Assembly: GCA_965371445.1 (NCBI GenBank)
Contig: CBDUYN010000012.1
Location: 10,878 to 74,877, forward strand
Reading direction: 5' to 3'
DNA: 64,000 bases
DNA from: an uncultured bacterium
GTDB taxonomy: Bacteria; Acidobacteriota; Thermoanaerobaculia; Multivoradales; J023
The position numbers were made by a program, and so were the translations under genes. The notes under the pieces were generated by a model. It saw only the letters and a program-made list of their open reading frames with translations. It was not told the origin of the DNA and ran no database searches. Shown here one piece after another: positions 33,106-54,349 of this stretch. Numbering within the stretch: position 1 is the first letter of the stretch; each line of letters begins with the position of its first letter.

Positions 33106-33148
33106 GACGTCAAGGCAGCGATTGAACCTTGTTCAAAAAAAGGAAGAC

Positions 33149-34861
33149 ATGAGCCAAATCGATGACGACAAGCGGTGCGGCGTACGCCGCGCCGCGCTGC
33201 CACGACACCTCCGCACGTGGACCGCCCTGACGGCTTTCTTCGTCCTCGTGGGCCCCGCGGCCGCGGACGACGGCGTTGGCCGGCCGCGGCTGGTCCTTCA
33301 GATCACCGTCGACCAGTTGCGCGGCGACCTGCCGCGGCGCTTCGAGGAACGCCTCGGTCCCGGCGGTTTCCGCTATTTGCTCGAGCGCGGCCTCCATTAC
33401 GACAACGCGCATTACCAGCACGCCAACACCGAGACGGCGGTGGGACACGCCACCCTCTTCACCGGAGCGGACCCGTCGCGTCATGGTCTGGTGGCCAACG
33501 AGTGGTTCGACCAGGTGACCGGCGAGCAGGTCTACAACACCGAGGACGATCGTCATCATTTGATCGGCAAGGAACCGAAACCGCACACCGGCACCTCGCC
33601 GCGCCAGATTCTCTCCTCGACGATCGGCGACGAGCTCGTGGTGCACGGCGGAGGACGGTCGCGCGTTTACAGCGTCTCGGTCAAAGACCGCGGCGCGATC
33701 ATCCCGGGCGGCCACGCGGGGAAAGCGTTCTGGTTCTCCAAGAGCTCGGGCGAGTTCGTCACCAGCACCTACTACTACGACGCCTACCCCGAGTGGGTGA
33801 AGGCGTGGAACGCCGCCCGGCCGGCGGACGAGTATCGCGGCAAGTCCTGGACGCTGCTCCACGACCGTTCGACCTACGTCTTCGCCGATTCCGACGACCG
33901 GCCCTTCGAGGCGAGCGTCGACGCCCTCGGTCGGACCTTCCCGCACTCCCTGGGCGACGGCAGCTCGAAATACTTCTACGGCGTCCTGACCTTCACGCCG
34001 GTGGGCGACGAGCTCACCCTGAGCTTCGCCAAGGCGCTGATCGAAAACGAAAAGGTCGGCCAGGGCAAAGCCACCGACTTTCTGGCGATCAGCTTCTCGT
34101 CGACCGACTACGTCGGCCACGTCTTCGGGCCGTCGAGCCTGGAGAGCGAGGACAACGTCCTGCGCCTCGACCGGACCCTCGCCGAGCTCTTTGCCTACGT
34201 CGACGAGTGGGTGGGACTCGATAAGACCCTGATCGTCCTCTCGGCCGACCACGGGGCGCCGGAGGCACCCGAGCACATGGCCCGACTGGGGATGGAGACC
34301 GGCAGGTTTCCTCTTGACTGGTTCCAGTCCGTACCTCTGACCCAGGCGCTGGAGAAGCGCTTCGGACGCGGCGACCTGATCGCCGCCCACAGCCACCCTT
34401 ACCTCTACTTGAACCTCGAAGCGATTCGCCAGGACGCCCTCGACGTGGCGGAGGTGGAACGCTTCGTCGCCGACGAGGTCCAGAAGCTCCCTGGCATGGC
34501 CTACGCCCTGACGCGTTCGGACCTGCTCGCCGGCCGGATCGCCGACGCGCCCTTGCAGCACCAGATCCGGCGCAGCTTTCATCCCACGCGGTCCGGCAAC
34601 GTCCACCTGGTGCCGCGTCACTACTGGTACCTGCACTCGGCCAAGGAGGCCGCCACGATGGGGATCGCGGCGATCCACGGCTCGCCCTGGGCCTACGACA
34701 CTTACGTCCCGATCTTCTTTGCCGGGCCGGGCGTGCCGACAGGAACCGTCAGCCGGCGGGTCGGCCCGCACGACATCGCGGCGACGCTCGCCGCCTATCT
34801 CGGTGTCAAGCCGCCCTCGGGATCTGTCGGGACGCCTCTCGTGGAGGTTCTGAATCGCTGA
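33149..34861 (+). CDS. Alkaline-phosphatase-superfamily protein (type I phosphodiesterase / nucleotide pyrophosphatase-like)
   Basis: Signal peptide. LVLQITVDQLRGDLP (metal-binding Asp), HATLFTGADPSRHGLVAN (nucleophile region), LSADHG. RBS aaaggaag before ATG 33149. Confidence 0.75.
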   Translation: MSQIDDDKRCGVRRAALPRHLRTWTALTAFFVLVGPAAADDGVGRPRLVLQITVDQLRGDLPRRFEERLGPGGFRYLLERGLHYDNAHYQHANTETAVGHATLFTGADPSRHGLVANEWFDQVTGEQVYNTEDDRHHLIGKEPKPHTGTSPRQILSSTIGDELVVHGGGRSRVYSVSVKDRGAIIPGGHAGKAFWFSKSSGEFVTSTYYYDAYPEWVKAWNAARPADEYRGKSWTLLHDRSTYVFADSDDRPFEASVDALGRTFPHSLGDGSSKYFYGVLTFTPVGDELTLSFAKALIENEKVGQGKATDFLAISFSSTDYVGHVFGPSSLESEDNVLRLDRTLAELFAYVDEWVGLDKTLIVLSADHGAPEAPEHMARLGMETGRFPLDWFQSVPLTQALEKRFGRGDLIAAHSHPYLYLNLEAIRQDALDVAEVERFVADEVQKLPGMAYALTRSDLLAGRIADAPLQHQIRRSFHPTRSGNVHLVPRHYWYLHSAKEAATMGIAAIHGSPWAYDTYVPIFFAGPGVPTGTVSRRVGPHDIAATLAAYLGVKPPSGSVGTPLVEVLNR

Positions 34862-35553: not shown

Positions 35554-37743
35554 TCAAAAACTGCGCCCGACGATCAGATAGAATTTGTCGCGGAAATCGC
35601 CGGCCGTCCCATAGGCCAGGTAGACGGGTCCGAGCCGTGTCCTGGCCCCCGCGAAGATCGTCGTCGAGTGGCGCAGGTCGCTCAGGTCGGCCTGCGAGAC
35701 GTCGTCCCACATGTTGCCGGCCTCGAGCCAGCCGCCGAAAAGCTTGTCGTGCCAGACCTCGCGGTAAAAGCCGAGCCGCGCCACCCCGTAGAAACGGCCG
35801 CGTAGAGAATCGTCGGGAAAGCCGCTCAAAGAGGTCAGGCCGCCGATCGCGAGCTCGGCCCAGAAGGGAGTGTCGTCCGACGCCCAGCCACCGCTTAAAC
35901 TGGCCATGATCGTGTTGCGTCCCCAGCTCCAGAACTCGAGCCAACGGGTTTCGACGGTTTCGTACTCGAAGTCCGCGCCCAAATCGTCGAGCGACGCGAA
36001 GGCTTCGAGGAACGCCGTCGCTCCGACCCGGGGAAATTCGACGTCGTCGAGCCGGTCGACCCGCGCCAGAAGCCGAATCCCCGCGAACTCGACGTCGGAA
36101 AGGTCCTCGAAGGGAAGGGACCCCGAAGTGACGTGGATCGATCCCCGTCCGCGTACGAGACCGAGCCGGACCTCCGCCGTACGACGGGCTTGCACGCCCA
36201 GCTCGAGCCGGAGCTGGCCCCGCTGGAGGTCGGTCTCCGCGATGGTCTGGTCGTCTTTGTAGAAGGTCGTGGGCGTTGTTCCGGCTTCCGCGGTCACCGA
36301 GGCGAACCACTTGCCGTCGAAGTCGAGCGGCTGGTAGTACTCGGAAGTGAGCTCTCGGGGCCGGCCGAGGAGGAGGTCGGTGCGGATTTCTCCCCCCCGG
36401 GAGTTGAGGCCGGTCGTGAGCAGGTTGATGAGAAACGAAGTTCGGAAGTCTCCGTCGAGATCCGAGGAGAGGTTCAAGCCGAAGCGGAGGTAGTTGGGCC
36501 CCCAGGGCTTCTCCTGGGTGTGGATGACCAGGGCGGTCTTGCCCTCGTGTCTCTCGAGGGCGAAGGAAACCTGTTCGAAGTGTCCGAGGCCGTAGATCCG
36601 GGCGAGGTCCTCGGAGAGCGCGTCGAAGTCGAGGACTTCGCCGGCTTGCATCCGGATCTGGTCTTCGATGATCCTGTCGTCGACTCGCTCGTTGCCTTCG
36701 AATCGAATCTCGTCGATGGTCGGCGGGGTCCTGCGGTGACGCCGGTGACGCGCTTGATACTCCCGGTACTCCTCTACCGAGACTCCGAGAGGACGCAGCA
36801 GCTCCGCTTTCGCCCGCGCCTCGACGATTCCGGCTTCGAAGATCTCCGGCAGGCCGCCGAATGCGAGCGTCCCGAACTGGCTGACTCTCGGGTGCAGCAC
36901 GATGTCCGCGGCCGCCAGCTGCGGCTCCATGTTCTTGCGGATCAGCATGCGGTTCGTCTGGTTCTGGATCTGCACCAGCGAGCTCACCTTGCGCGACGAG
37001 AGAGGTGCCCCGAGGTCGATGGCGATGACGATGTCGGCGCCCATGGCGCGCACCACGTCGACGGGGACGTTGTTGGTCACTCCGCCGTCGACCAAGAGGC
37101 GGCCGTCGAGCTCGACCGGAGAAAAGACGGTAGGGATGGCCATCGAGGCCCGCATCGCGGTGGCGAGGTTGCCTTTCGCCAGCACCGCGGGCTCGCCCAC
37201 CTGGATGTCGGTGGCCACCGCCCGGTAGGGGATCGGAAGCTGGTCGAAATCGCTGACGTCGGCCACCGGCAGGGTCAGGGACTGGAGGAGGAAGAAGAGC
37301 TTCTGACCCTCCAGGAGGCCGCTCGGCCATTGGAGCTTCCACTTCTTGACGCCCGCCTCGAAGTCGAGGAGGTAGCGCTGGGAGTCTTCCTTGCGCCGGA
37401 AGGAGAGGTCCTGCCGGGAGGTCTGGTCCTGCATGGCGTCGCTCCAGTCGACGGCGAAGAGGACCTCTTTCAGCTCCTCGGCGCTCATGCCCGAGGCGTA
37501 GAGCCCGCCCATGATGGAGCCCATGCTGGTCCCCGCGACGTAGTCGACCGGGATGCGCAGCTCCTCCAAGACCAGGAGCACCCCGATGTGGGCGCCGCCC
37601 TTGGCGCCGCCGCCGCCGAAAGCGATGCCGATCTTCGGGCGCTCACCGTCGTCTCCCGCGGCCGGATTCGGCACGAGGAGCAGCAAGAGCAGCAGCGGTA
37701 GGGTTCGCCTCCGGGAGGACGCCGTTCGTCGTCTTAAGGACAT
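35554..37743 (-). CDS. PlpD-like patatin phospholipase fused to POTRA / Omp85 beta-barrel (type Vd secretion architecture)
   Basis: 729 aa. Signal peptide. Patatin motifs GIAFGGGGAKGGAHIGVL and GTSMGSIMGG (GxSxG). A catalytic Asp region later. C-terminal beta-barrel ending ...FYLIVGRSF. Confidence 0.75.
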   Translation of the reverse strand: MSLRRRTASSRRRTLPLLLLLLLVPNPAAGDDGERPKIGIAFGGGGAKGGAHIGVLLVLEELRIPVDYVAGTSMGSIMGGLYASGMSAEELKEVLFAVDWSDAMQDQTSRQDLSFRRKEDSQRYLLDFEAGVKKWKLQWPSGLLEGQKLFFLLQSLTLPVADVSDFDQLPIPYRAVATDIQVGEPAVLAKGNLATAMRASMAIPTVFSPVELDGRLLVDGGVTNNVPVDVVRAMGADIVIAIDLGAPLSSRKVSSLVQIQNQTNRMLIRKNMEPQLAAADIVLHPRVSQFGTLAFGGLPEIFEAGIVEARAKAELLRPLGVSVEEYREYQARHRRHRRTPPTIDEIRFEGNERVDDRIIEDQIRMQAGEVLDFDALSEDLARIYGLGHFEQVSFALERHEGKTALVIHTQEKPWGPNYLRFGLNLSSDLDGDFRTSFLINLLTTGLNSRGGEIRTDLLLGRPRELTSEYYQPLDFDGKWFASVTAEAGTTPTTFYKDDQTIAETDLQRGQLRLELGVQARRTAEVRLGLVRGRGSIHVTSGSLPFEDLSDVEFAGIRLLARVDRLDDVEFPRVGATAFLEAFASLDDLGADFEYETVETRWLEFWSWGRNTIMASLSGGWASDDTPFWAELAIGGLTSLSGFPDDSLRGRFYGVARLGFYREVWHDKLFGGWLEAGNMWDDVSQADLSDLRHSTTIFAGARTRLGPVYLAYGTAGDFRDKFYLIVGRSF

Positions 37744-37989
37744 TGAGCTTCTCCGTGAGTGACCAGACGGCGGAAGTTGCTTGGCGCTCAGAGCTCCAGA
37801 CGTCCGGACATTACAGGACGGGACACCCGATGACCAGGGTTTCGGGGGTCTTCGAGCGTGTCGCCACCACAGCCGAGAAACGCGGAGACCTCGGCTCGAC
37901 GGTGGTCTTCGACGTCGAGGAGAAGCCGCGCTACCTGGTGGCCTACGGCGTCCGCAGGGAGGAGGCCGAAGGCCTGTTGCTGGGAGCGC

Positions 37990-40353
37990 TCAGCCGCCCC
38001 GGCGTCCGCCGAGGCGTCCGCCGCCCATGCGGCCACCGCCCATCGAGCGTCCGCGTGAGCCGCTCGAGTAGCCGCCCTGCGAGCGCCAGTTGTCGTAGCG
38101 TCCGCTGTTGACGTTGCCACGCTGGCGACCCGACTGGCTCCGGTTGAGGTCGCGGATGACATCGCTCGAGCCGCGCGAGCCGGCACGGTCGCGTACCGCG
38201 TCGCGCTGAGCGTCGCTGAGCCCCGAGCCGGCACGGTCCCGCACGGCGTCGCGTTGCTCCGGCGACAGCCCGTCGCTGACCTTGTCCCAGCCGCCACCCT
38301 TGCCGCCGTGCTTGTACCAGCCGTCGTCGCCGCGGCGATAGACGTCACCGTCACGGCCGACGTAGAGGTCGTCCTTGCCGCGCACGAATCCGGCCCGCCC
38401 GTCGCCCGTGTCGACGACCCCGCCGGCGCGTCCGCTCGAGTCGCGAAAGCCGCGGACGCTGCCCCGGGCGTCGCTGTAGTAGCCCGACTTGAGCCACTGG
38501 TCGCCGCGCGAGACGACACCCTGGCCCCAGCTCCCGTAGGCGTCGTAGGAACGGTAGCCCGCCGCTCCCACGCCGGTGCGCGGGTTGAAGGCGGCACCGT
38601 AGGCGGAACCGCCGCCCGCGCCGTAGGCGTAGCCGCCGCGGGCGTAGGTCCCGGTCGTCGGGTTGTAGGATGCGCCGAAGCCGGCGCCCCCGTAAGGACC
38701 GTAGTAGGCGTAGCCGCGGCCGTAGAACCCGGTCGACGGGTTGTACCAAGCACCGGCACCGTAGGTGTAGGGGTAGGAGTAGTAGATCGGATAGGGGTAG
38801 TAGAACGGATCGTAGTAGTAGTAGGGCGAGTAGTAATAACCCGTCCCCCAGACCACGCAGCCCCAGGAAACGTAGACGCCCATGTAGCCCGGCGTGTAGC
38901 CGTAGACCACCGTCTCAGGCGTCGAGTCGTAGGCGTAGACGTAGGTCGTGTGGTGGACCGGCGACTCCGACGGGATCGAGTAGATCTCCTTGGGGACTTC
39001 CGGGGCGACCGTCCACGGTCCCGTCGGGGCCGCGGCGAGGAACCACACACCCTTTTGACAGAGGTAGTAGGAGTCGTCGCCGACGCGGATGACGTCGGAG
39101 GCGGTGTTGATGGCGTAGGCGAGCTCCGTGCCCTCGATGTCCCGGAACTCGGGGTCGCCGACGTACTCGACCTTCACCTCCTTGGGCGCGTCCTCGCGGC
39201 TGACCACGGCGACGGTCGGGATCTGCGCCTGGAGGATCGCCTCCTCGGCCTGCGGCGTCCCCGGCACCGACGCCAGGACCGCTCCCTTGGCGTGGTCCTC
39301 GGGGATGTCGGCGAAGCCGTCGGGGAGCTTGCCGGTAGCCGCCGACCAGTCCCCTTCGAGGTCGTCGTTCTTGAACCAGCGGCCCGCCACCAGGTAGTAG
39401 TAGTGGCCGTCGTCGATGTGGCGGAAGAGATCCACCTCGGTGTTCTCGACGAAGAGGACCGGCGTGTCGGGGACCGGCACCAGCTTGGGCTCGCCTTCGA
39501 TCACGATGAGCTCGGCGGGCGCGGTGGAGACGAAGACCGCGGGGACGTTCTTCGGCGAGATCTTGGTGCCGGGGACGTGGATCCTCACCTGGCGGAAGTT
39601 GTCGTTCATAGGAAGCTTCTTGAACGCCTTGGGGAGCTTCTTGGCGGCGCTCCAGGGACCCTGGAGCGCCGGGGCGGTGAGCCAGCCCGTCTCCTTGCGG
39701 AGATAGAGGGTGGTCTTGCCCTTCTCGTACTGGAAGAGGTCCCAGTTGGTATTCGCGGCGTAGCTTAAGTCGTCGACGCCCGAGGGGATCCAGGCCGGGT
39801 CGCCGTTGACGTTGACCAAAACCGCCGGCTTCGTGCTCACGAAGATGGCCGGCGGCTTGTCGTTGAGCTCGACCTTGCGGCCCTGGACCTCCGACTTCGA
39901 GATCCCGGCGAGGACCCTGTCGAGCGACACGGCGATCGGTTTCTCAGGGAACGTCGAGCGGACAATTTCCCGGACTCGTTCCGGGGAGGTGCCGTCGATC
40001 TCCGGGATGCGGATCTCGGCGAGCTCGAGGTCGTGGATGAAGACGGTCCGGGTATCCATGTGGGTGTCGGTCTTCGCCACCAGCTTGACCGCTCCGGCGA
40101 CGCCCTCCTCGGCACCCGGCGCGGTGAGCATCACGGCCGCGTAGGCCTCCATCCTGAGGTAGTCGTCCCAGCTCCGGATCTGGGGCTGGTAGACGACGAG
40201 GCGGTAGTCCTCGCCGGTGAATTCCCGGGGCCAGCCGAGGTTGGGCCGGGCCTCGGCAGCGTCGGCCGGCGCGGTTTCTTCCTCGGAGAGGAGGGGAAAA
40301 GCTCCTGCCACGAGCAGGGCGAAGAGAAGAAGGGTGAGAGCTCTGCGGATCAT
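37990..40353 (-). CDS. Orphan paralogue of module gene C (787 aa, secreted, Tyr/Pro/Gly-rich region and RGG tail)
   Basis: Signal peptide (MIRRALTLLLFALLVAGAFPLLS). Collinear similarity to 13533..16010 throughout (NTNWDLFQYEKGKTTLYL; DLFRHIDDGHYYYLVAGRWF; YNPSTGFYGRGYAYYGPYGGAG...). Tail ...GGGRMGGGRLGGRRGG. Confidence 0.7.
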   Translation of the reverse strand: MIRRALTLLLFALLVAGAFPLLSEEETAPADAAEARPNLGWPREFTGEDYRLVVYQPQIRSWDDYLRMEAYAAVMLTAPGAEEGVAGAVKLVAKTDTHMDTRTVFIHDLELAEIRIPEIDGTSPERVREIVRSTFPEKPIAVSLDRVLAGISKSEVQGRKVELNDKPPAIFVSTKPAVLVNVNGDPAWIPSGVDDLSYAANTNWDLFQYEKGKTTLYLRKETGWLTAPALQGPWSAAKKLPKAFKKLPMNDNFRQVRIHVPGTKISPKNVPAVFVSTAPAELIVIEGEPKLVPVPDTPVLFVENTEVDLFRHIDDGHYYYLVAGRWFKNDDLEGDWSAATGKLPDGFADIPEDHAKGAVLASVPGTPQAEEAILQAQIPTVAVVSREDAPKEVKVEYVGDPEFRDIEGTELAYAINTASDVIRVGDDSYYLCQKGVWFLAAAPTGPWTVAPEVPKEIYSIPSESPVHHTTYVYAYDSTPETVVYGYTPGYMGVYVSWGCVVWGTGYYYSPYYYYDPFYYPYPIYYSYPYTYGAGAWYNPSTGFYGRGYAYYGPYGGAGFGASYNPTTGTYARGGYAYGAGGGSAYGAAFNPRTGVGAAGYRSYDAYGSWGQGVVSRGDQWLKSGYYSDARGSVRGFRDSSGRAGGVVDTGDGRAGFVRGKDDLYVGRDGDVYRRGDDGWYKHGGKGGGWDKVSDGLSPEQRDAVRDRAGSGLSDAQRDAVRDRAGSRGSSDVIRDLNRSQSGRQRGNVNSGRYDNWRSQGGYSSGSRGRSMGGGRMGGGRLGGRRGG

Positions 40354-40440
40354 TGCTGGTCTCCTGGGTGTAGGTCTTGAAGCTGGCCGGAGGGTCGAAG
40401 GGCCAGGGAAGAGAGTATTGCGGAATCACTGTAACGGAAA

Positions 40441-40463
40441 AATGAGACCTTGGTCCTATGGCG
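40441..40463. promoter_or_regulatory. Conserved 19-bp motif AATGAGACCTTGGTCCTAT with palindromic arms (GGACC/GGTCC-like), upstream of the orphan module gene C''
   Basis: Near-identical copy (AATGGGACCTTGGTCCTAC) at 51362-51380, upstream of the single-domain response-regulator gene. A degenerate relative (GACCAAAGTCCTATGG) at 54242-54257 in the divergent DUF4136 / module-2 promoter region. Confidence 0.3.
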
Positions 40464-43400
40464 GGCCCAATTCCTCGAACGACGCCTCGACAAGCGTCAG
40501 CCGTAGCCGCACGGGCATCCCGGCCGCCGCTTCGAGCCGCTGGCGGGCGGTTTCGAACCTCTCCGGATCGAGCTCTTCGTCAGTGTAGATCGTCCCCTCG
40601 ACCACCAGCTCGTCGCCCCAGCTTTGCACCGAGAGATTCTCGACTCGCAGCTCCTGGTCGGCACGTCGCAACTGCGAGAGGATCAACGCCTCCAGACGGT
40701 GGGTCTGGATCGAGGTTCGTGTCTGAAAGCCCAGGGGGATGGCGACGAGGACGATCGCCACGGCCGCCCACAGGATGGCGCGCCGCGCCGCCCGGTCGCG
40801 CCCCGTACGGGACGGACGGAAGCCGAGCAGCAAGAAGATGAGAGCGCCGACCAGGACGATGCCGGCGAAGTTGGTGAGGAAGAGCAGCAAGGCGCCGCCG
40901 CCCAGGCGGAAGTTGGACGAGCCCAGGCCCCAGCCGGCGACGCAGAGCGGCGGCACCAGGGCGACGCTGATCGCCACCCCGGGCAAGGCCGCCGCCACCG
41001 ACTTGCGGCTGACTCCGTAGGCCGCCGCCGCCCCGGCCATCACCGCCACCAGGAGGTCGAGGAGGCTCGGCTCGCCGCGCGCCAGCATCTCGTGCGTCGG
41101 TGGACGCGGCGGTAAGAGCAGCGCCGAGGCCGTCCCCACGGCGAGGGCCACCGCGACCCCCTTGAAGGCGGAGGAGGCACCGCGGCGGATCAGCCGTACG
41201 TTGCCCTGGACGATGCCTTGTCCCACGGCGAGGATCGGGCTCATGAGCGGCGCCACCAGCATCGCGCCGATGATGACCGCGCCGCTGTCCAAGATGAGCC
41301 CCAACGAGGCGATGGCCGAGGCCAGGAAGATCAGGACGTAGTAGTCGACGCCGGCCCGCGCCGACTGGCGCATCTGCGCGAAGACCTCGGAGCGCTCGCG
41401 GACCGAGAGCGTCGGCAGTGGGCTCGAGACGAGCTCCCAGAGCCGACGCAACCAGTATCCCGAGACCCGCTCCGCCCTCTTGACGACGACGGTCGCCGCT
41501 TCCCGTCCCGCGGCGACTTCGGCCGGCAATCCGCCGAGGACCGTGCGCTGGAGGAGCCGGTCGACCGAAGCGCCGAGGAGCAGGACGTCGGTCCCCGCGG
41601 CCGAGTGAAGGATGCCCTGGGCGGCGTCGACGGCATCGACGACGAGGGGTTCCGCGGGCCCCGGCCGTGCCGTGCGGGTCTTCGCCACCGCCTCCCGGGC
41701 TTCTCGCTCCGCGCCCCGGGCGTCGACTCCGAGCACCGTGAGCCGGGCGTCGTAGACGGCGGCGAGGGCCTCGCCGAGCTCGAGGGCGACCGGGGCGTGA
41801 GGTCCGCCGGCCGTCGCCACCATCACCTCTTCGGCGGTGTCCGGCAGCAGGGAGTGGAGCACTGCCACGCTACGATGCGTCGCCGGGAAGACCTCCTCGA
41901 CCACGGCCTCGTGCTCGCCCTCGACTCCCGCGGCCGGCCAGCCCAGGAGGAGGAAGTCGACCCGGTTCTCGGCCGCGGTGGCGAGAATGCCCGCGTTCGG
42001 CGACGGCGCGATGCGCACCAGCGGACGGACCGGCGTTTCGTCTTTCCGCGCGCTCCCGATCAGCTTCTCGAGGTCTTGCCACACCTCGGCGGCCGTTTCG
42101 CGGATCTCGTCGAGCGGTACTTTCTCGTCGAGCGGTACGACCTGCAGCACCAGGAGCTCACCGCCGCGCGAACGCGCCAGGGCCGTCCCGAGCCGGATCA
42201 GCGACGCGGTCGCCGCCGGCTCGCCGCCGACGCTCGCCAGGACCCGATAGACCTCCGGCTCGTCCGGGTCGACCTCGCCACGGCCGCCGCGGTCGACCAG
42301 GTACGTCCGCTGATGGAGCGCCACCACGCGATGGCGTGCGTAGGTCCAGAAGACGAGGCCGCCCAGAAGCCCCCAGCCGAGTCCCAGCGCGAGGCTCGTC
42401 CGGGGCAGGATGAGCGCGAAGAAAACGGCGCTCGCCGCCGCCAGCCCCGGCACTAGCGGATGGAGCGGCAACCGAGGACGCCGGCCGGACGACAGCTCCC
42501 CGGCCGGACGACGGAGATGGGGCCAGAGAACCAGGAAGCCTGTCAACAGGGCGAGGAAGCTGGCGACGCCGGCGAGGTCCAGCCGGGGCAAGGCCGTGCA
42601 AAGGGCCGCGAACAGAAAGAAGAAGAAGAGCGGTCGCCGCAACGCGCCAAGCCCCTCGAGCGAGACCAGCCACCGCGGCAGGAGGCCGTCGCGGGCCATG
42701 GCCCGCACGACCCGTACGCCGCGTTCCAGGGCGCGCTGGAGGCCGAGCCCGCAGAGCAGGACCGTGGTGACGTTCAGCAAGAGCACCAGGCGGTTTTCGT
42801 CCCACGAGACCTGGGAGAGGAAGCTTTCCCGGTCGGTCAGGATCTCCGAGTGGCGCAGGACGAGGAAAGCCGCCGGCGCTCCCAGCAGAGCGACCGGAAG
42901 CCAGGCCACCAGCAACGCCCGAGGGAGTGTCTTCGAGGGCTGCCGGAGCTGTCCGCGCAGATCGAGGATCAGCTCAAGACCCCAGAGCCCGGCCCCCAGG
43001 AGCGCGACGCTCGCCAGCCAGTGGCGTTGGGAGTCGACGTCGATCTCCATGCCGAGGTTCGACGCCGGGCGGGTGAACCCCCATGCCGTCATCGCGGCCA
43101 GCGCGACGAGCGCTCCCCAGAGGAGGATCGCCTGCCGGCGCCAGCTGCGGCGGAAGCTGAGGAGATTGTGGAGCGTGAAACCCCCCAGGACCGCGAGCGC
43201 CAGCACTCCGGTTTCGTACCGTGCCCCGAAGAGCAGCTGGAAACCGACTTCGAGACGGTAAGCGACGCCCCAGGCGAGAAGCGCCGTCACCGTCGAGTAG
43301 CCGCCGAGGAGCAACCAGCCGGCGAAGAAGAGCCCTTTCGCCGAGCCGCTGGCGCGAGCGACCTTGTAGACGCTGGCGCTGCCGTGTAGCTCGCAAGAGC

Positions 43401-43593
43401 GCTCGGCGTAGCCCAGGAGAAGCGGCAGGTAGAGGAGCCCGGCGAGGAGAAAGGCGAACGGCGCCTCGTCGCCGGAGAGGCGCAAGACCTCGCCGCTCAC
43501 CACCAGGACGCCCAGCGGGACGCTGACCGACAGGCCGGCCGCCGTCGCGGCCGGCAGGCCGAGAACCCGGCTGAAGTCGACAGCGGGTCTCAT
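40456..43593 (-). CDS. Multidomain membrane protein: APC-family amino-acid-permease-like N-terminal domain, tandem universal-stress-protein (UspA) domains, and a C-terminal DUF389 membrane domain
   Basis: Start taken at MRPAVDF (ATG at 43593). 12-TM permease-like N-terminal part. Two Usp-like alpha/beta segments (ATASLIRLGTALARSRGGELLVLQVV...; EVMVATAGGPHAPVALELGEALAAVYDARLTVLGV...). DUF389-like C-terminal part (VDYYVLIFLASAIASLGLILDSGAVIIGAMLVAPLMSPILAVGQGIVQG...). Confidence 0.6.
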   Translation of the reverse strand: MRPAVDFSRVLGLPAATAAGLSVSVPLGVLVVSGEVLRLSGDEAPFAFLLAGLLYLPLLLGYAERSCELHGSASVYKVARASGSAKGLFFAGWLLLGGYSTVTALLAWGVAYRLEVGFQLLFGARYETGVLALAVLGGFTLHNLLSFRRSWRRQAILLWGALVALAAMTAWGFTRPASNLGMEIDVDSQRHWLASVALLGAGLWGLELILDLRGQLRQPSKTLPRALLVAWLPVALLGAPAAFLVLRHSEILTDRESFLSQVSWDENRLVLLLNVTTVLLCGLGLQRALERGVRVVRAMARDGLLPRWLVSLEGLGALRRPLFFFFLFAALCTALPRLDLAGVASFLALLTGFLVLWPHLRRPAGELSSGRRPRLPLHPLVPGLAAASAVFFALILPRTSLALGLGWGLLGGLVFWTYARHRVVALHQRTYLVDRGGRGEVDPDEPEVYRVLASVGGEPAATASLIRLGTALARSRGGELLVLQVVPLDEKVPLDEIRETAAEVWQDLEKLIGSARKDETPVRPLVRIAPSPNAGILATAAENRVDFLLLGWPAAGVEGEHEAVVEEVFPATHRSVAVLHSLLPDTAEEVMVATAGGPHAPVALELGEALAAVYDARLTVLGVDARGAEREAREAVAKTRTARPGPAEPLVVDAVDAAQGILHSAAGTDVLLLGASVDRLLQRTVLGGLPAEVAAGREAATVVVKRAERVSGYWLRRLWELVSSPLPTLSVRERSEVFAQMRQSARAGVDYYVLIFLASAIASLGLILDSGAVIIGAMLVAPLMSPILAVGQGIVQGNVRLIRRGASSAFKGVAVALAVGTASALLLPPRPPTHEMLARGEPSLLDLLVAVMAGAAAAYGVSRKSVAAALPGVAISVALVPPLCVAGWGLGSSNFRLGGGALLLFLTNFAGIVLVGALIFLLLGFRPSRTGRDRAARRAILWAAVAIVLVAIPLGFQTRTSIQTHRLEALILSQLRRADQELRVENLSVQSWGDELVVEGTIYTDEELDPERFETARQRLEAAAGMPVRLRLTLVEASFEELGPP

Positions 43594-43612
43594 CCCGTCG
43601 GCCGCTTTCTCC

Positions 43613-44470
43613 CTAGAACGCGAGGCGGGCGTAGAGCTGGAAGCCGCTGATACCGTACTCGACGCTGCCCCGGAACCGCTTCTTGTCGGTGTCGACGTCG
43701 TACTGCAGCGAGCTAAAGGAGAAGCCAAACCCGAAATGCTCGGTCGTCCGGTGCTCCAGGGCCGCGTTCAAGTCGATGGTCTCGCCGGAGATGTCGTCGA
43801 CGGTCACCGCGGTGATGATCCGGGCTCCGGCTTTGAAGACGAACTTGTGCGGCATGGCGTAGCGCAACGCGATGCCCACGAGCGGCACCGGAGCGTCGAC
43901 GCTGGCGCCTTGCTCGATCAAGCCGATGTCGGTGTTGGCGGCTCTCAGCCTGGCGTCTATGGTCAGGAACGAGACCCCGCCGGCCGAGACCCCGAAGGCC
44001 AGCTTCTCTTTCAAGACCACCCACCAGATCCAGGAAAACTCGAAGACCTCGCTCTTGAACTCGCCTTCGACGTCGACGTTGATCGGGAAGGTCCGGTCGC
44101 CGAATTGGATCTCGCGCGTCAGGGTCGTTGACGCGGAGCGCGACAGCGAGAAATAGCCGAAGTTGAGCTGGTGACGGGGCCGGATGCGCCATTCGAGGCC
44201 CAGGCGGAAGAGGGTGTCGGAGTCCTTGAGGCCGATCTCGTTCTCGAAGTCGAAGCGGTCGCCGAGGCCGAGGTCGATCTTCGAGTCGACGCGGGCCTTG
44301 GTGTTGAGCGTCGTGTAGAAGCCCCCCAGGGTGATCGCGAAGCGGTCGAGGGTCGGGTGGTCGAGGTGCTCGTCACCGGCGAGGACCGGCTGGGCGCAGA
44401 GGCCGGCGAGCAAAGCGACGGCTGCCAGCCCGGCGAGACGTGGGAAGCGGTGTGCAGGCGTTCGGGACAT
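43613..44470 (-). CDS. Outer-membrane beta-barrel protein of unknown function
   Basis: Signal peptide (AGLAAVALLAGLCAQPVLA), alternating beta-strand pattern, C-terminal ...GISGFQLYARLAF. Confidence 0.55.
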   Translation of the reverse strand: MSRTPAHRFPRLAGLAAVALLAGLCAQPVLAGDEHLDHPTLDRFAITLGGFYTTLNTKARVDSKIDLGLGDRFDFENEIGLKDSDTLFRLGLEWRIRPRHQLNFGYFSLSRSASTTLTREIQFGDRTFPINVDVEGEFKSEVFEFSWIWWVVLKEKLAFGVSAGGVSFLTIDARLRAANTDIGLIEQGASVDAPVPLVGIALRYAMPHKFVFKAGARIITAVTVDDISGETIDLNAALEHRTTEHFGFGFSFSSLQYDVDTDKKRFRGSVEYGISGFQLYARLAF

Positions 44471-48504: not shown

Positions 48505-49965
48505 TCATTCTCGGAAGTCTGTGATATTGGCGGGTCGAGGATTCGGGTGATCCTTGAGTGAAGCGTAGTATTGCACGATCAGCGGCATGTACTTGCCGAC
48601 GACCCAGCTCGCCTCCGGACCGATGTCGGCCTCCTCACGTGGGTCTTGTTCGATATTGTAGACGTTCGGGTAGCCGTTCTTGCGGATCCGGCTTGCCTGG
48701 GTCCCGCCCACCGTCGTGAAGCCGTTGCCCGACGCAACGACGTCCTGCAAGTAGACGCGGAAGTGCCGCCAACGCACGGCAATCAGCTCGCCGTTGATGA
48801 AGGTGAGCAGGTGCTCGCGGTTGGAGTGGTCCTGCTTGCCAAGCAGCCAGTCGGACTGGTCGATGCCGTCGAAGGGACGGTCGGTCGGGACCGTGGCGCC
48901 GGCGAAGCTCGCCAGGGTCGGCAGGAAGTCCATGGTGGAGAACATGCCGTTGGTTACACCCGGCTTGATGTGACCGGGCCACTTGATCATGCCCGCAGTG
49001 CGGATCGAGCCTTCCCAGGCGCTGCCGAGCTCGCCCCGGAACGGCCCGCTGCTGCCGCCGTCGGGCCAGACCATGGTCTTCCAGGGTCCGTTGTCGCTCA
49101 TCCACACGACGATGGTGTTCTCCTCCACTCCGGCAGCGTTCAGTGCGGCCAGTACCCGGCCGGTGTTGTGGTCGAGCTCCATGACGCTGTCGCCGTAGTC
49201 GCCGATGTGGGAACGGCCGGCGAAGTCCTTGCTGGGGAGATTGGGCCAGTGGGGCCGGGTCCAGGAGACGAAGAGGAAGAAGGGATCCTCGGCCTTCGCC
49301 TGATCTTCGATGTAGGCGACGGCCCGATCGGCGATCTCGACGTCGATCGTCCGCCGCACGTCGAGCGTGTACTCGCGCACTGCTTCGATGGGTTTTCCCA
49401 CCTCGCCGCTCCAGATGTAGGAACGTTCGCTCTCCGTCGGTTCGTAGCCCGCGCGCCTCATGCTGCTGTTGAAGACGGCTTCGTCGGTCGAGTTGAGGAT
49501 ACCGAAGTAACTGTCAAAGCCCTGGCTGTGGGGATGGCTTTGCGCCTCGGTGCCCAGATGCCACTTCCCGAGGTAGGCCGTCGAATAGCCGACGTCCTTC
49601 AACACCTCCGCCATCGTCACTTCCTCGGCGGCCAGGGTGTTCGACGTCCCGCGCAGCACGACGAGAGACAGGCCGCTCCGGGTCGAGTACCGGCCCGTCA
49701 TGGTGGCGGCACGAGACGGCGTGCAACCGGGCTCGACGAGGAATTGCGTGAAGCGCAAGCCTTCGGTAGCGAGCTCATCGATGCGCGGAGTGGGCATGCC
49801 GCGCACTTCGCCGCCGCCGTAGGCACCGAGATCCCCGTAGCCGAGGTTGTCGGCCATCATGAAGACGATGTTGGGTCGGTCCGTGTCCGACTTCTCCTGG
49901 GCGGGCACAGACGTCGAAAGTGCGAGTAGGACGACCGAGATCGCCCAGATTCTTGCGCAGCTCAT
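48505..49965 (-). CDS. Arylsulfatase-family sulfatase
   Basis: Start at MSCARIWAISVVLLALS (ATG complement at 49965). CTPSRAATMTGR signature. GKWHLG. Confidence 0.8.
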   Translation of the reverse strand: MSCARIWAISVVLLALSTSVPAQEKSDTDRPNIVFMMADNLGYGDLGAYGGGEVRGMPTPRIDELATEGLRFTQFLVEPGCTPSRAATMTGRYSTRSGLSLVVLRGTSNTLAAEEVTMAEVLKDVGYSTAYLGKWHLGTEAQSHPHSQGFDSYFGILNSTDEAVFNSSMRRAGYEPTESERSYIWSGEVGKPIEAVREYTLDVRRTIDVEIADRAVAYIEDQAKAEDPFFLFVSWTRPHWPNLPSKDFAGRSHIGDYGDSVMELDHNTGRVLAALNAAGVEENTIVVWMSDNGPWKTMVWPDGGSSGPFRGELGSAWEGSIRTAGMIKWPGHIKPGVTNGMFSTMDFLPTLASFAGATVPTDRPFDGIDQSDWLLGKQDHSNREHLLTFINGELIAVRWRHFRVYLQDVVASGNGFTTVGGTQASRIRKNGYPNVYNIEQDPREEADIGPEASWVVGKYMPLIVQYYASLKDHPNPRPANITDFRE

Positions 49966-50008
49966 TGCTGAATCCTCTGGTTGGTTAGAGACGTTCCACC
50001 AGCTCTGG

Positions 50009-50920
50009 CTACCGGTTGGAAGGTTCGTAGGGGTCCGGCGTGCCTGGACGGATCGGTGGCTCCTTCTTGAAAGAAGCAACGTGCCGGACCAAATGCTCCC
50101 CTGCCGGCCAGCGGATCCACCCGCTGTAGTACCACCTCGAGTTGAGCGGATACTCCTCTCTCGGGTCGGTGTGCAGGTCGTAGATGAGCGGCACACCGTA
50201 GGACCTCGTCGGATCGGCGAACGCCCGGTCGGCCTCGACCTGCCGCTTCATGAAGTCGATCGAGCGTGAGGTGAACTCGCCGTCGATCAGGGCGCGCTCC
50301 TCCGTGTTGTAGACGCGGAGCTTCTTCGGCTGCTCCCCTTTTCGTCCCTCCATGATGTGCTCGGGCTGCGCGAAGGGGTGAGAGTCGGGCCGGTAGCGGG
50401 TGTCGTCGGGCCAGGCGCTCTCGTCGGAGGAGTTGGGGATGCCGTACCACTCGTCGAAACCCTGGTCGGTGGGATAGCGTCCCTCGGTGTGCCCCAGGTG
50501 CCATTTACCGAACATGCCGGTGGCGTAGCCGACGTCGGAGAACATCTCGGCCAGCGTGTATTCCCACTGGGTGAGCCCGTAGACCGGCGTCTCGATGGGG
50601 ATCGGCGCGTTGCCGGTCCGGATGGCGTAGCGGCCGGTCAGGATGGCGGCGCGGCTGGGCGTGCACTGCGCCTCGACGTTGAAGTTGAGCAGCCGCATGC
50701 CTTCGGCGGCGAGGGTGTCGATACGCGGCGTCGGCGCGCCGCGCAGGACGCCGCCACCGTAGACGCCGAGCTCGCCCCAGCCGAAGTTGTCCATGAAGAC
50801 GAGGACGACGTTGGGCTTCTCCTGTGCCGCGGCCGGGCTGTGCTTGTCTTGTGCCGCCGCCGGCAACGCGAGCGTCGCCAGCAAGGCAAGGAGGAGCAGA
50901 GGTGTGAAGGCTCTTCTCAT
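50009..50920 (-). pseudogene. Sulfatase with an in-frame internal deletion of roughly 180 aa
   Basis: N-terminal 230 aa are intact (CTPSRAAILTGR; GKWHLGHTEG). The sequence then jumps directly to the extreme C-terminal block (IYDLHTDPREEYPL...PIRPGTPDPYEPSNR). Compared with the 481-aa paralogue at 30094..31539, the central catalytic / metal-binding part is missing. Confidence 0.55.
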
Positions 50921-50930: not shown

Positions 50931-51308
50931 CTAAATGGACCGGCGGACGGACGCGGGTAGCGCTTCCAGCAGGTCGGTTTCTTCGAAGGGCTTGGCGAGG
51001 AGAGCCAGCGCTCCCAGAGCCTTCGCCCGTTGCCGCGTCGTTTCTTCCAGGTGGGCGGTGATGAAGACGACGGGCGCCTTCGTCCCCTCCGCCGCCAGCC
51101 GCTCCGCGAGCTCGAAGCCGCTGGTCCGCGGGAGCTGGACGTCGAGCAGGAAGCACGAGGCGCCGTGCCGTCGATCGTCCTTCATCAGCTCTCCCGCCGA
51201 TCCGAAGGCCAGCGAGCTCACGCCGTGGGAACGCAGCAGCCGGCCGAGGGCGCGGCAGACGGAAGAGTCGTCGTCGACGATGCAGACGATGGATGCGGTG
51301 GAGGTCAT
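50931..51308 (-). CDS. Single-domain response regulator (CheY-like receiver)
   Basis: 125 aa with IVCIVDDDSSVCRALGRLL, phospho-acceptor D in CFLLDVQLP, and T/K motifs (VVFITAH; LAKPF). Confidence 0.75.
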   Translation of the reverse strand: MTSTASIVCIVDDDSSVCRALGRLLRSHGVSSLAFGSAGELMKDDRRHGASCFLLDVQLPRTSGFELAERLAAEGTKAPVVFITAHLEETTRQRAKALGALALLAKPFEETDLLEALPASVRRSI

Positions 51309-51361: not shown

Positions 51362-51385
51362 GGGCAATGGGACCTTGGTCCTACT
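51362..51385. promoter_or_regulatory. Second copy of the AATGrGACCTTGGTCCTA motif
   Basis: aatgggaccttggtcctacttttgg. Lies in the 200-bp gap between the PAS kinase (ends 51508) and the receiver gene (starts 51308). Confidence 0.3.
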
Positions 51386-51507: not shown

Positions 51508-53082
51508 CTACCGTCCGACGGACGAATCTGCCGGCAACGTGAAGTGGAACGTGGCGCCTCGGTCGTCGTTCTCGTAGGCCCGGATCCGGCCCTGGTGCAC
51601 CTCGAGGATCGAGCGGACGATCGCGAGCCCCATCCCCATGCCGTCCGCCTTCGTGGTGTGGAACGGTTCAAAGAGCCGCTCCGGCTCCTGGCCGCCGAAG
51701 CCGGCCCCGAAGTCACGCACCGAGACACCGACTCCCTCCCCGGGCTCGTTCTCCGTGCGGAGGACGAGCCTCCGTTCCTCGGCCGGCAGGTCGGCCATGG
51801 CGTCGAAGCCATTCAAGATCAGGTTGAGAAGCACTTGCTGGAGCTGGACCCGGTCGCCGCATACCGGCGGCAGTCCCTCGTCGAGCTCGAGCTCCAAGTC
51901 GACCCCCTTCAAGAGGGCGTCACTGCGCAGCAAAGGCAGTACCTGACGGATCACCTCGTTCATTTCCAGAGGCTCCAGCTGCGGCTCGTGTTTCTGGAGC
52001 AAAGCGCGCAGCCGGCGAATGACCTCGGCCGCCCGCCGGTTGTCGGCGACGATGTCTCCGAGGATCTCGCCGATCTCCCCGAGGTCCGTTTCGCCGCTTT
52101 CCAGGAAGCGCTGGGCGGCGCGGGCGTTCGATCCGATGGCGGCGAGGGGCTGGTTGAGCTCGTGGGCGATGGCCGCGGTGAGCTCGCCCAGTGTGGCCTG
52201 GCGTCCGACGTGCGTCAGCTCGTCCCGGAGATGGCGCAGCTCCTCGTTCTTGCGCTTTCGCTCCGTGACGTCGGTTTGGATCCCGACGTAGTGGGTGACG
52301 GTGCCGTCGGCACTTCGTATCGGCGAGATCCGCAGCAGGTTCCAGAAGGGGGTCCCGTCTTTGCGGTAGTTGAGGATCTCGTCCTGAAACGTCTCGCCGT
52401 GGGCTATGGTGGCGCGGATCGCGGCCAGGGTCTCCGGATCGGTGTCGGGGCCCTGCAAGAACCGGCTGTTCTGTCCCAGGACCTCCGATGCCTCATAGCC
52501 GGTCAACCGGGTGAAGCTTTCGTTGACATAGCTGATGTACATGCCCTCGACTCGCGCGTCCGTGATGACGCAACCGGAATAGAGCGCCTCGATCGCCGCC
52601 GACTTCAGACGGATCTGCTCCTGCGTCCGCCGCAGGTCGGTCACGTCGCGTGCGGTTCCCCAGACTCGCAGAACCTTGCCGTCCTGGATCGTGCCTACGA
52701 AGTTGTTCAGAAAGATCCTTTCCGTTCCGTCCGCGGCCCGCTCGACGGTCTCCTCATCAGTCATCCGGTAACCCGAGCGAATGGTCTCGAGCAGGAAGGG
52801 AACGCTGGTGGGCAGGGACCGGGGGAAGAAGGTCTCCAGCCGCCATCCGAGGACGTCCTCGCGGGTCGTGGCGTAGGCGACGGCAAAGGTCTCGTTGGCC
52901 TCGACGATCCGGGCATGCTGGTAGAGGAGATCGACCTGCTCCATCTCCGGCAAGTCGATCGGGACGCCCTCCTCCATCTCGATGCACCAGATGGCCTCGG
53001 TGCTGTTGGCGACGAAGCTGCGGTAGCGCTCGTGGTTGATCGCGAGCAGCTCTTCGGCGGCGTCTGTGGATTCTCGACCCAT
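51508..53082 (-). CDS. Cytoplasmic multi-PAS sensor histidine kinase
   Basis: 524 aa with at least two PAS/PAC segments. HisKA H-box (HELNQPLAAIGSNARAAQRFL). HATPase N, G1 and G2 boxes (NLILNGFDAM...; VRDFGAGFG). Confidence 0.8.
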   Translation of the reverse strand: MGRESTDAAEELLAINHERYRSFVANSTEAIWCIEMEEGVPIDLPEMEQVDLLYQHARIVEANETFAVAYATTREDVLGWRLETFFPRSLPTSVPFLLETIRSGYRMTDEETVERAADGTERIFLNNFVGTIQDGKVLRVWGTARDVTDLRRTQEQIRLKSAAIEALYSGCVITDARVEGMYISYVNESFTRLTGYEASEVLGQNSRFLQGPDTDPETLAAIRATIAHGETFQDEILNYRKDGTPFWNLLRISPIRSADGTVTHYVGIQTDVTERKRKNEELRHLRDELTHVGRQATLGELTAAIAHELNQPLAAIGSNARAAQRFLESGETDLGEIGEILGDIVADNRRAAEVIRRLRALLQKHEPQLEPLEMNEVIRQVLPLLRSDALLKGVDLELELDEGLPPVCGDRVQLQQVLLNLILNGFDAMADLPAEERRLVLRTENEPGEGVGVSVRDFGAGFGGQEPERLFEPFHTTKADGMGMGLAIVRSILEVHQGRIRAYENDDRGATFHFTLPADSSVGR

Positions 53083-53742: not shown

Positions 53743-54222
53743 TTACGGCGCTTTCACCTCGGGGAAGCTCTTGAACATCTTCTTGACGACCTTGCGGACG
53801 ATGCTCTTGGCTTTGCGCGCCTTCTCGGGCTGCACGTCAGTCGCCTGGCCGCGCCAGACGAGCTGGCCCATCGACGCTTCGTAGACCTCGACGACCAGGG
53901 CGACGTAGAGGAAGGTCGGGTTCTTGCCGGCATGGGTGCGGACGTAGAGGTCGGCGGCGCCGTCGGAGCGCTGCCAGCCGCCCGCGGCGAAGTGGGCGTC
54001 GACCGTCGCGCGGATCTCCTTCTCGATCTCGTGGTTGGCGGCCGGCGTGCCCTTCTGCCAGGCGTAGGTGCGAAGGGGCGAGAAGTCGAGGCTGCCGTAG
54101 TATTTGACCTCGACGGTGAGCGCGGCGGCGGAGCCGGCCGCGAGGAGAGCGAGGGTGAGGAGGAGAAGCGTCTTCGTCTTCATGGCGTCGTAGAGTCTGG
54201 CTGGAATCGGCGCCCGGGTCAA
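53743..54222 (-). CDS. DUF4136-family lipoprotein, copy 2. Lies 5 bp upstream of the FixJ-type regulator gene on the same strand.
   Basis: Signal peptide (MKTKTLLLLTLALLAAGSAAA), YYGSLDFSPLRTYAW motif, C-terminal VRKVVKKMFKSFP. Confidence 0.6.
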   Translation of the reverse strand: MTRAPIPARLYDAMKTKTLLLLTLALLAAGSAAALTVEVKYYGSLDFSPLRTYAWQKGTPAANHEIEKEIRATVDAHFAAGGWQRSDGAADLYVRTHAGKNPTFLYVALVVEVYEASMGQLVWRGQATDVQPEKARKAKSIVRKVVKKMFKSFPEVKAP

Positions 54223-54349
54223 ATGGGGGGGAAGGCTACGACCAAAGTCCTATGGCACCGTCTCTTGCCGCACGGCATGATCGCCTTGCGATGTCTGCGA
54301 AGAAGGCGCAGAATGGACCGAACGAACTCAGACCTCGGAGGACGAGACC

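Follow-up and report, generated by a model that had tools for sequence, protein, structure and literature searches.

A predicted exported envelope paralogue behind a DosR-type promoter box in an uncultured member of the Acidobacteriota

Why should a large gene with a full-length paralogue in the same stretch of DNA stand by itself, and with which other genes does it belong? This question is raised by the gene designated here as C'' (positions 37990-40353), which lies in a 64,000-nucleotide stretch (hereafter, the window) of contig CBDUYN010000012.1 from assembly GCA_965371445.1 of an uncultured bacterium of the Acidobacteriota. An initial annotation had described C'' as an orphan paralogue of a protein C encoded in a module at 12-16 kb, and had taken its position next to a PlpD-like patatin-Omp85 gene as a hint that proteins of this type are surface-exposed or associated with the outer membrane (OM). 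In our analysis, the best explanation, which we consider probable but well short of certain, is that C'' is an exported envelope paralogue and the 'missing C' of a second module, and that it belongs to a regulon marked by a promoter box for a FixJ/NarL-type regulator. Thus, C'' is probably switched on together with the genes of module 2 and with the neighbouring lipase gene, and is not tied to the latter by a conserved pairing.

The coding sequence of C'' and the elements involved in its translation and export are the following.

37990-40353, minus strand: coding sequence of C'' (787 amino acids, stop codon included), a predicted exported member of an unannotated family
40361-40365, minus strand: Shine-Dalgarno sequence AGGAG of C''
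40285-40353, minus strand: predicted Sec-type signal peptide of C'', residues 1-23, MIRRALTLLLFALLVAGAF, without a lipobox, unlike C

The open reading frame is real, and it stands on the minus strand apart from the module genes, as had been described. It starts with ATG, with the Shine-Dalgarno sequence located 8-12 nucleotides (nt) 5' of the start, and the GC content at codon positions 1, 2 and 3 (0.64, 0.50 and 0.90, respectively) indicated that it is coding. The predicted size of the product is approximately 83 kDa. All of the 44 columns that were invariant in an alignment of 94 family sequences (W, N, G, P and others) are retained, and orthologues of 765-791 amino acids were intact in five relatives. 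Judged from its sequence, C'' is therefore an intact protein with a predicted Sec-dependent export route.

The paralogue with which C'' was compared is encoded on the other strand.

13533-16010, plus strand: paralogue C, a lipoprotein (LVAC lipobox), within envelope module 1 (11.2-16.5 kb)

The correct start codon of C is at 13533 (ATG; MKLLPFLLLLPALVAC), and the sequence from there is a lipoprotein signal. A tblastn search of the window with C'' returned this one paralogue (13638-15923, plus strand; 45.4% identity over 776 columns, E = 4e-179), and no third copy of C was found by this search in the window, even at E < 5. BLASTP joined C'' and C in one collinear block (residues 37-749), which takes in both the YNPxTGxY region and the Tyr/Pro-rich stretch, and ...GGRRGG is the C-terminal sequence of each; homology, collinearity and the common RGG tail, all of which had been proposed, were thus supported by the alignment. 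Orthologues specific to C'' were found at 58-68% identity (P0002, P0003, P0004, P0006 and P0007), and the best relatives of C are different ones (P0053, 60% identity). Since each of the two proteins has a separate set of orthologues, the duplication is old and C'' is not a decaying copy.

With regard to annotation, no match to Pfam or NCBIfam models was obtained for C or C'' (E ≤ 0.01), nor did a PDB sequence search with the family profile return one. A word-indexed search retrieved 2,803 homologues, all of them full length, of about 750-830 amino acids and labelled 'hypothetical', while a family profile searched exhaustively against 1.84 billion representatives, each standing for a 50%-identity cluster, matched 7,326 at E ≤ 1e-3 and 2,454 at E ≤ 1e-30. 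Identity between C'' and 120 listed homologues was 42-68%, with a coverage above 90%. In a scan of one genome per species, the family was present in at least 580 genomes, mostly of Acidobacteriota; other hosts belong to the Verrucomicrobiota, Alpha- and Gammaproteobacteria (Ensifer, Steroidobacteraceae), Myxococcota (Vitiosangium), Bacteroidota, Planctomycetota, Rokubacteria and Binatia, and in Ensifer, Paraburkholderia, Rhizobium and Pseudoalteromonas the genes are carried on chromids. The RefSeq name of a family member is likewise 'hypothetical protein', and Ensifer adhaerens and Terracidiphilus are among the organisms with family members. A lipobox was present in 4 of the 94 aligned members, and nearly all end in a Gly/Arg-rich segment with a terminal Arg run, the Arg-rich C-terminus being conserved. 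C'' shows the full-length collinearity, the invariant residues, three repeats, the YNPxTGxY region, the Arg-rich C-terminus and a predicted N-terminal export signal, and these sequence features place it in a very large family of bacterial proteins that lacks annotation.

The intergenic region upstream of C'' had been reported to contain a motif shared with other genes. The copies of this motif in the window, with their -10-like elements, are listed below.

40441-40458, minus strand: DosR-type palindromic box TAGGACCAAGGTCTCATT, centred at about -42 from the inferred transcription start of C''
40414-40419, minus strand: -10-like hexamer AATACT of the C'' promoter, 21 nt after the box
51366-51383, minus strand: second box TAGGACCAAGGTCCCATT, followed after 21 nt by AATACT, 5' of 50931-51308 and the sulfatase genes
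54237-54254, plus strand: third, degenerate box TACGACCAAAGTCCTATG (4 mismatches) with the -10-like hexamer CATGAT, about 95 nt 5' of module 2

The motif is indeed present upstream of C'', in an intergenic region that measures 102 nt (40354-40455) and not 100 bp; as a 19-mer (40441-40459), it overlaps the TAG with which the upstream DUF389 gene (40456-43728) terminates. The C'' promoter comprises the DosR-type palindrome TAGGACCAAGGTCTCA and, at a fixed spacing, the -10-like hexamer, and this box-plus-promoter architecture is shared by C'', module 2 and the operon of a CheY-type regulator and sulfatases. With 3 mismatches or fewer allowed, the window has two occurrences of the 19-mer (40441 and 51366), versus 0 expected, and all three boxes are located 5' of genes in the right orientation, namely C'', 50931-51308 with the sulfatases, and module 2. 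Upstream of module 1 (11.2-13.1 kb), however, no box was found at up to 4 mismatches. The idea of an upstream motif held in common therefore stood for module 2 and the CheY-sulfatase operon and not for the 12-16 kb module, with which co-regulation had been suggested; the motif supports co-regulation with module 2, at 54 kb, instead.

The same architecture was followed in other genomes, the loci of which are cited here by labels beginning with L. The box also precedes the single-domain regulator gene at the head of C''-containing gene strings in L002 and L001, the L001 copy being degenerate, and the alignment of six promoters from four genomes gave TAsGACCAArGTCCyATkG, about 21 nt and then nATAcT. 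An exact-pattern scan of metagenomes located the box in at least 120 contigs, a raw count for the 18-mer that is no evidence alone and that comes from loci biased to lineages using the exact box; 80 of these contigs (L091-L170) were examined and provided 73 non-redundant instances. In 48 of the 73, an extra A extends the palindrome, and a G/C-C after ...ATT gives a TTGCC element resembling a -35 region. A TAnnnT pattern peaks 21-22 nt after the box (12 instances, compared with 0-3 at other offsets), and the -10-like hexamer of C'' lies at the same 21-nt offset. From this layout, with a spacer of 17 nt, we infer that the palindrome centre near -42 corresponds to the position of a class-II-type activator site. 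In the literature, a search with the box sequence retrieved primers only and no paper in which the box itself appears. As a separate observation, a box-like site (TAGGACCCAGGTCGCATG, 3 mismatches; 20860-20877, plus strand) overlaps the first ATG of an open reading frame at 20875-23289, the TolC-family part of which begins only at residue ~369.

An inverted repeat that overlaps the stop of the upstream DUF389 gene, preceding a gene set apart from all module genes, might also suggest that C'' is a redundant duplicate drifting to loss and that the motif is a coincidental repeat of the REP (repetitive extragenic palindromic) or terminator type. We consider this very improbable, because the reading frame is intact, with a strong codon-position bias and all invariants, and because the C''-clade orthologues, at 58-68% identity, point to an old duplication. 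Moreover, the arms of the palindrome are 2 nt apart, which is too few for the loop of an RNA hairpin, and both the fixed spacing between box and -10-like element and the content of the downstream genes are conserved across genomes.

The second module behind a box is organized as follows.

54350-56670, plus strand: module 2, without C (P138, Gly-zipper, P196 and DUF4136 genes)

Its P138 protein (138 amino acids) is 61% identical to P147 of module 1 (13084-13527), its Gly-zipper protein is 62% identical to that encoded at 12450-13025, and its P196 protein (196 amino acids) is 32% identical to P161 (16061-16546); it also includes a DUF4136 protein, and another DUF4136 gene is located on the opposite, minus strand at 53743-54222. 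Only the Cys-rich protein and C are absent with respect to module 1. C'' is encoded 14 kb away from module 2, and in relatives, genes of the C'' clade directly adjoin module components: in L087, the box is followed by a 199-amino-acid P161-like protein (70% identical to that at 16061-16546 in the window) and then by C'', and in L090, C'' is followed by a DUF4136 gene (46% identical to DUF4136_2 of the window), with an OMP285-like gene also present. We therefore infer that C'' is best read as the 'missing C' of module 2, encoded in trans as part of a stress regulon under two-component control. The small module proteins had no match when searched by sequence against Pfam, NCBIfam and the PDB, and the literature on DUF4136 gives no function. 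Separately, the window encodes a 285-amino-acid OMP-like protein (43613-44470, minus strand) with no Pfam match and the C-terminus ...YARLAF, homologues of which (30-34% identity) adjoin C-family genes in L003 (7061-7945) and L090 (6253-7089).

A candidate for the protein that binds the box is encoded close to its second and third copies, together with a sensor kinase.

53090-53737, minus strand: FixJ/NarL-family response regulator (receiver plus GerE helix-turn-helix domain), putative box binder
51508-53082, minus strand: histidine kinase with a PAS domain, a LOV-like domain (GQNSRFLQG, Cys to Ser) and a FixL-type kinase core
50931-51308, minus strand: single-domain response regulator (CheY) heading the sulfatase operon

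The regulator and kinase genes lie between these two box copies. The best PDB matches of the regulator were StyR (5e-53) and FixJ (9e-45), with NarL (2e-16) and DevR (5e-16) behind them, and the best PDB match of the kinase was YF1, an engineered LOV-FixL kinase (4gcz, 2e-78), with which it aligned end to end; many LOV domains aligned with it too. Natural LOV-like proteins without the Cys exist and can signal via flavin reduction (PMC4682037), and the product of 51508-53082 may be a naturally occurring sensor of flavin redox state or of photoreduction. Close homologues of the regulator, with the same receiver and GerE domains (≥45% identity), adjoin the box in L001 and L002. At that threshold, FixJ-like regulators of this type were present in 12 of 80 box-selected loci (0.38 Mb) versus 3 of 80 loci selected for C-family genes (1.5 Mb), an enrichment of about 16-fold per Mb at the box-selected contigs; two of those three (L073 and L078) also carry box-like sites. 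These data support the assignment of 53090-53737 as the predicted cognate binder of the box. Two sulfatase reading frames follow 50931-51308, at 50009-50920 and 48505-50196 (both on the minus strand); the former (303 amino acids) spans only about half of a sulfatase domain; it may have an internal deletion or be degenerate.

It could be argued that the box is bound by a different regulator, either another protein of the NarL/LuxR family or a repressor, and that C'' responds to a signal unrelated to the LOV-type kinase. The kinase next to the box in L001 and L002 is of another type (Reg_prop/Y_Y_Y), the known rhizobial FixJ sites look unlike the box (PMC4999443), and a single-domain response regulator is itself a member of the regulon and could rewire the signalling. 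Weighing against this, a close homologue of the regulator accompanies the box in three C''-clade genomes as well as in the 12 box-selected contigs of 80, and regulators of the LuxR/NarL family bind palindromes of this kind (PMC2275270). We therefore judge a different binder to be quite unlikely and retain the product of 53090-53737 as the candidate.

The genes placed behind the box elsewhere were identified by BLAST and Pfam from 63 non-redundant first-downstream genes of the metagenome contigs. C-family genes were found by BLAST directly behind the box in L093, L112 and L164; in L135, a C-family gene diverges from a box-driven P196-like gene, and in L166, the box is followed by a regulator of the receiver-GerE type and then by C. 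In L093, the box lies between the C-family gene and a P196-like gene, which is in turn followed by the regulator. Other components of the window's modules and operons also recurred behind the box by BLAST, namely P196-like proteins (L111, L135), a Gly-zipper protein (L114), DUF4136 (L148) and sulfatases (L142, L157). Pfam assigned seven SpoIIAA-like proteins, three single-domain response regulators, two PPK2 and two MIP (aquaporin) proteins, with one instance each of a cbb3-type oxidase subunit, LEA_2 and DUF308, and three patatins (L151, L161 and L167), the last belonging to two lineages and all cut by contig ends. For families present once per genome, among several thousand genes, recurrence at this level far exceeds what chance would give. 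The contigs with the box TRGGACCAAGGTCYCATT (at least 120) are mostly from soil, and DcaP-like genes were also seen behind it.

As for the gene located downstream of C'', the following features are involved.

35554-37743, minus strand: PlpD-like patatin-POTRA-Omp85 gene with the catalytic GTSMG and DGG motifs (Ser-Asp dyad), possibly read through from the C'' promoter
37963-37975, minus strand: AGGCC-UUCG-GGCCU hairpin directly 3' of the C'' stop, without a U tract, which may or may not terminate transcription

This gene encodes a true PlpD homologue, in line with its initial description as a type-Vd-like patatin-Omp85 protein: Pfam detected Patatin (1.7e-33), one POTRA domain (4.8e-08) and, weakly, Omp85 (18.6 bits against a cut-off of 24 bits), the passenger structure of PlpD (5fqu) was matched at 2e-80, and BamA matches were obtained in PDB and NCBIfam. 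It lies on the same strand as C'', as stated, across a gap of 246 nt (37744-37989) rather than 247. A consensus scan for sigma-70 promoters and terminators, uninformative overall, detected no sigma-70-like promoter in this gap, and an Rfam scan of 35-45 kb returned nothing. A gene for a type I phosphodiesterase/nucleotide pyrophosphatase is located 0.7 kb past the PlpD-like gene (33122-34861, plus strand).

Whether this adjacency is conserved was addressed by a survey of 86 loci encoding C-family proteins. Only two of them had a patatin-Omp85 gene nearby: L001, a close relative, in which it forms one tightly spaced string with a 57%-identical C'' orthologue behind a box-like site, and L046, at a distance of 10 kb. 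The closest orthologues of C'' (63-68% identity) had none nearby, the gene orders being 199-amino-acid protein, C'' and MltF-like in L087, HipA and then C'' alone in L088, and OMP-like, C'' and DUF4136 in L090. No neighbour was universal among the 86 loci; the recurrent ones were DUF4136 lipoproteins (16 loci), P161-like proteins (11) and DUF481 (10), as well as Gly-zipper and OMP-like proteins, and stand-alone C-family genes were common (L005, L088 and, in Ensifer, L089). A conserved pair of C-family and patatin genes was accordingly rejected. With two of 86 loci, the patatin adjacency is lineage-specific and unable to carry the inference initially drawn from it; as a basis for placing C'' at the OM it is weak. 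The placement itself, at the envelope or OM, is nevertheless supported on other evidence: the predicted signal peptide, the lipobox of C, the DUF4136, Gly-zipper, DUF481 and OMP-like neighbours, and a predicted amphipathic beta-meander.

A narrower proposal is a functional pairing of C'' with the neighbouring PlpD-like lipase of type Vd, in which C'' would act as the surface-exposed partner, substrate or helper of the lipase. The common strand, the 246-nt gap in which no promoter was detected, the tight string behind a box-like site in L001, the recurrence of both patatin and C-family genes behind the box and the lipid-binding-type fold predicted for the N-domain of C'' would all fit it. We nonetheless hold it to be improbable: the two genes are adjacent in 2 of 86 loci and not in L087, L088 or L090, C'' has neither a two-partner-secretion nor a passenger-type domain, PlpD has its own passenger, and family members often stand alone (L005, L088, L089). 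The link between C'' and the lipase is better explained by shared regulation than by pairing, since C-family and patatin genes are both repeated members of the regulon, which accounts for their adjacency in one lineage without a conserved pair.

Several further observations concern the surroundings of C-family genes. A gene for an MltF-like protein (SBP_bac_3 plus SLT lytic transglycosylase) recurs 3' of C''-clade genes, immediately so in L001 (10373-11905), where it overlaps the C'' stop by 4 nt, and in L087 (12345-13946), and about 2.8 kb further on in L006 (13088-14614). In L002, a sulfatase/phosphodiesterase gene fills the slot held by the patatin in L001, and ester hydrolases seem interchangeable in this gene string. 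The 1,090-amino-acid protein encoded upstream of C'' in the window (40456-43728, minus strand) combines an amino-acid-permease-like membrane domain, a universal-stress-protein domain and DUF389, and a homologue of it (48% identity, 1,068 amino acids) adjoins the C'' orthologue in L002, on the opposite side. In L003 (12097-17498), the neighbours of the C-family locus are genes for a metallophosphatase, a PHO4 transporter, PhoU_div and a phosphate-selective porin, a context hinting that phosphate limitation may play a part in this lineage.

The fold of C'' was predicted with AlphaFold2 and the family alignment. The model of the whole protein had a mean predicted local distance difference test score (pLDDT) of 81.4 and a predicted template modelling score of 0.75, and residues 37-460 modelled alone reached a pLDDT of 92.5. 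Four parts can be distinguished.

39904-40242, minus strand: predicted YceB/TULIP-like N-domain, residues ~38-150
38998-39873, minus strand: three internal beta-rich repeats, residues 161-452, G[DE]P..NT..D[LV]..YYL..W[FL]..GPW, plus a helical linker
38278-38853, minus strand: Tyr/Pro-rich stretch (43% Tyr), then a Gly/Tyr/Arg-rich beta-hairpin meander, residues 501-692
37993-38277, minus strand: basic helical region and disordered RGG tail, residues 693-787, with a duplicated LSxxQRDAVRDRAG

In the model, the N-domain showed fold similarity to solved YceB/TULIP members, and no match of it to DUF1439 or any other TULIP family of Pfam was obtained (E ≤ 0.01). A Foldseek search of the PDB with the whole model returned nothing at E ≤ 0.001. 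The meander carries YNPxTGxY repeats and presents one charged face and an opposite face of small or aromatic residues. Two candidate assignments were rejected, namely a YD-repeat/Rhs shell, with no RHS/YD Pfam match and weak Foldseek similarity to teneurin and TcB-TcC (E 4e-3 to 0.5, TM < 0.1), and a substrate or partner of two-partner secretion, with no Pfam match to the haemagglutination-activity domain and a different fold of the N-domain.

The modelled amphipathic meander resembles barrel walls, which raises the possibility that C'' is an integral OM protein with a Tyr/Gly-rich C-terminal beta-barrel of OmpA-like logic, a large N-terminal part in the periplasm and a periplasmic basic tail. 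This is doubtful, in our opinion. Any long antiparallel meander matches barrel walls, and OspA, lipovitellin and the YD shells of teneurin and Tc toxins were matched too; the strands are low in aliphatic residues (15%) and rich in Gly and Tyr (43% together), no Omp-type Pfam match was found, and pLDDT in the region ranged from 29 to 85. C'' ends in GGRLGGRRGG, that is, without a C-terminal aromatic beta-signal, and an internal beta-signal may remain.

Taken together, the exported paralogue C'' in a box regulon with module 2 would operate as follows. Under the control of a kinase responding to light, redox or oxygen, the regulator would be phosphorylated and would then occupy the box, at about -42, in the manner of a class-II-type activator; C'', module 2 and the sulfatases would be switched on together, with the PlpD-like lipase gene being read through from, or otherwise co-regulated with, the C'' promoter. 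C'' would supply the C function for module 2. Its YceB/TULIP-like N-domain might bind lipid or another hydrophobic ligand of the envelope, the Tyr/Gly-rich amphipathic sheet and the Arg-rich tail might hold the protein at the inner face of the OM or in it, and C'' and the small module proteins might remodel or protect the envelope under the sensed stress; these three functions are put forward jointly and tentatively, as a possible and not a probable scheme. A wider version can be considered only as speculation that is unlikely to hold in full: the C family would be a new class of envelope proteins for TULIP-type lipid binding or shuttling at the OM, anchored by a Tyr/Gly sheet and poly-Arg, which in this lineage would act with the PlpD-type lipase, the phosphodiesterase, sulfatases, DUF4136, Gly-zipper and P196 proteins in OM remodelling driven, via a DosR-like box, by a flavin-based two-component system (Cys-less LOV) for light or redox.

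Several results count against parts of this explanation. Module 1, which holds paralogue C, has no box, and the box is not found upstream in most C-family loci from other phyla, so that membership of the regulon is lineage-specific; the bias of the metagenome scan given above belongs here as well. The pairing of regulator and box rests on proximity, co-occurrence and family analogy. Co-transcription of the lipase gene has to contend with the 246-nt gap and the GC hairpin right after the C'' stop, and the repeats and the C-terminal sheet of C'' gave no informative structural match.

The paralogy of C'', its orphan position and its lipase neighbour are ordinary, and the PlpD neighbourhood is the least general part of these findings. 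What is out of the ordinary is a very widespread, nameless family for which the fold model is confident and includes a domain of lipid-binding type, and a conserved DosR-like regulon that joins the C family with patatin lipases, sulfatases and small envelope proteins and that a Cys-less LOV kinase apparently drives in this genome. C'' gives entry to a family of predicted exported proteins of about 780 amino acids from hundreds of species in at least six phyla, nameless and with no solved relative, and to the outline of a DosR-like regulon in uncultured soil and marine bacteria. The handles gained are the fold model with its lipid-binding-type N-domain, the recurrent small partners, and the promoter box with a candidate regulator and sensor. 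If the idea of lipid handling is true, a TULIP-type player would be added to bacterial OM lipid homeostasis.

Among known systems, the likeness to OmpA-like OM barrels is partial only (120-170 residues): the C-terminal part of C'' is rich in Gly, Tyr and Arg, lacks a match to an OMP family and ends in a basic RGG tail instead of a beta-signal. For the N-domain, the close known systems are YceB (DUF1439) and the TULIP superfamily (BPI/CETP, Der p 7, JHBP/Takeout, SMP, botulinum P47/OrfX). The neighbouring lipase shares with PlpD, the type Vd protein of Pseudomonas aeruginosa, the signal peptide, the patatin motifs GTSMG and DGG, one POTRA domain and an Omp85-like C-terminus, and departs from it in that the Omp85 match stays under the Pfam cut-off (18.6 versus 24 bits); to our knowledge, no PlpD partner resembles C''. 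The sensor kinase has in common with YF1 and the FixL-FixJ system the LOV domain, the FixL core and a FixJ-like partner regulator, and it differs from YF1 by a Ser in place of the adduct-forming Cys and by an extra N-terminal PAS domain.

The comparison with DosR/DevR concerns the box, the regulator and the regulon. The DosR consensus is TTSGGGACTWWAGTCCCSAA (PMC2275270), and the box GGGACCAAGGTCCC matches the DosR core GGGACTWWAGTCCC at 12 of 14 positions, both being palindromic (PMC2275270), whereas the positions beside the central dinucleotide differ symmetrically (C/G for T/A). The regulator is closer in sequence to StyR and FixJ (5e-53 and 9e-45) than to DevR (5e-16), the kinase is LOV/PAS-FixL-like rather than GAF-haem, the host is no actinobacterium, and binding is here a prediction. 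In line with the DosR system, however, the C'' box overlaps the -35 region, a regulator with receiver and GerE domains is encoded next to box-bearing promoters, and the content downstream of the box is of the stress type (PPK2, LEA_2, aquaporin, cbb3 oxidase, SpoIIAA-like), which looks like a DosR-like stress regulon outside the actinobacteria.

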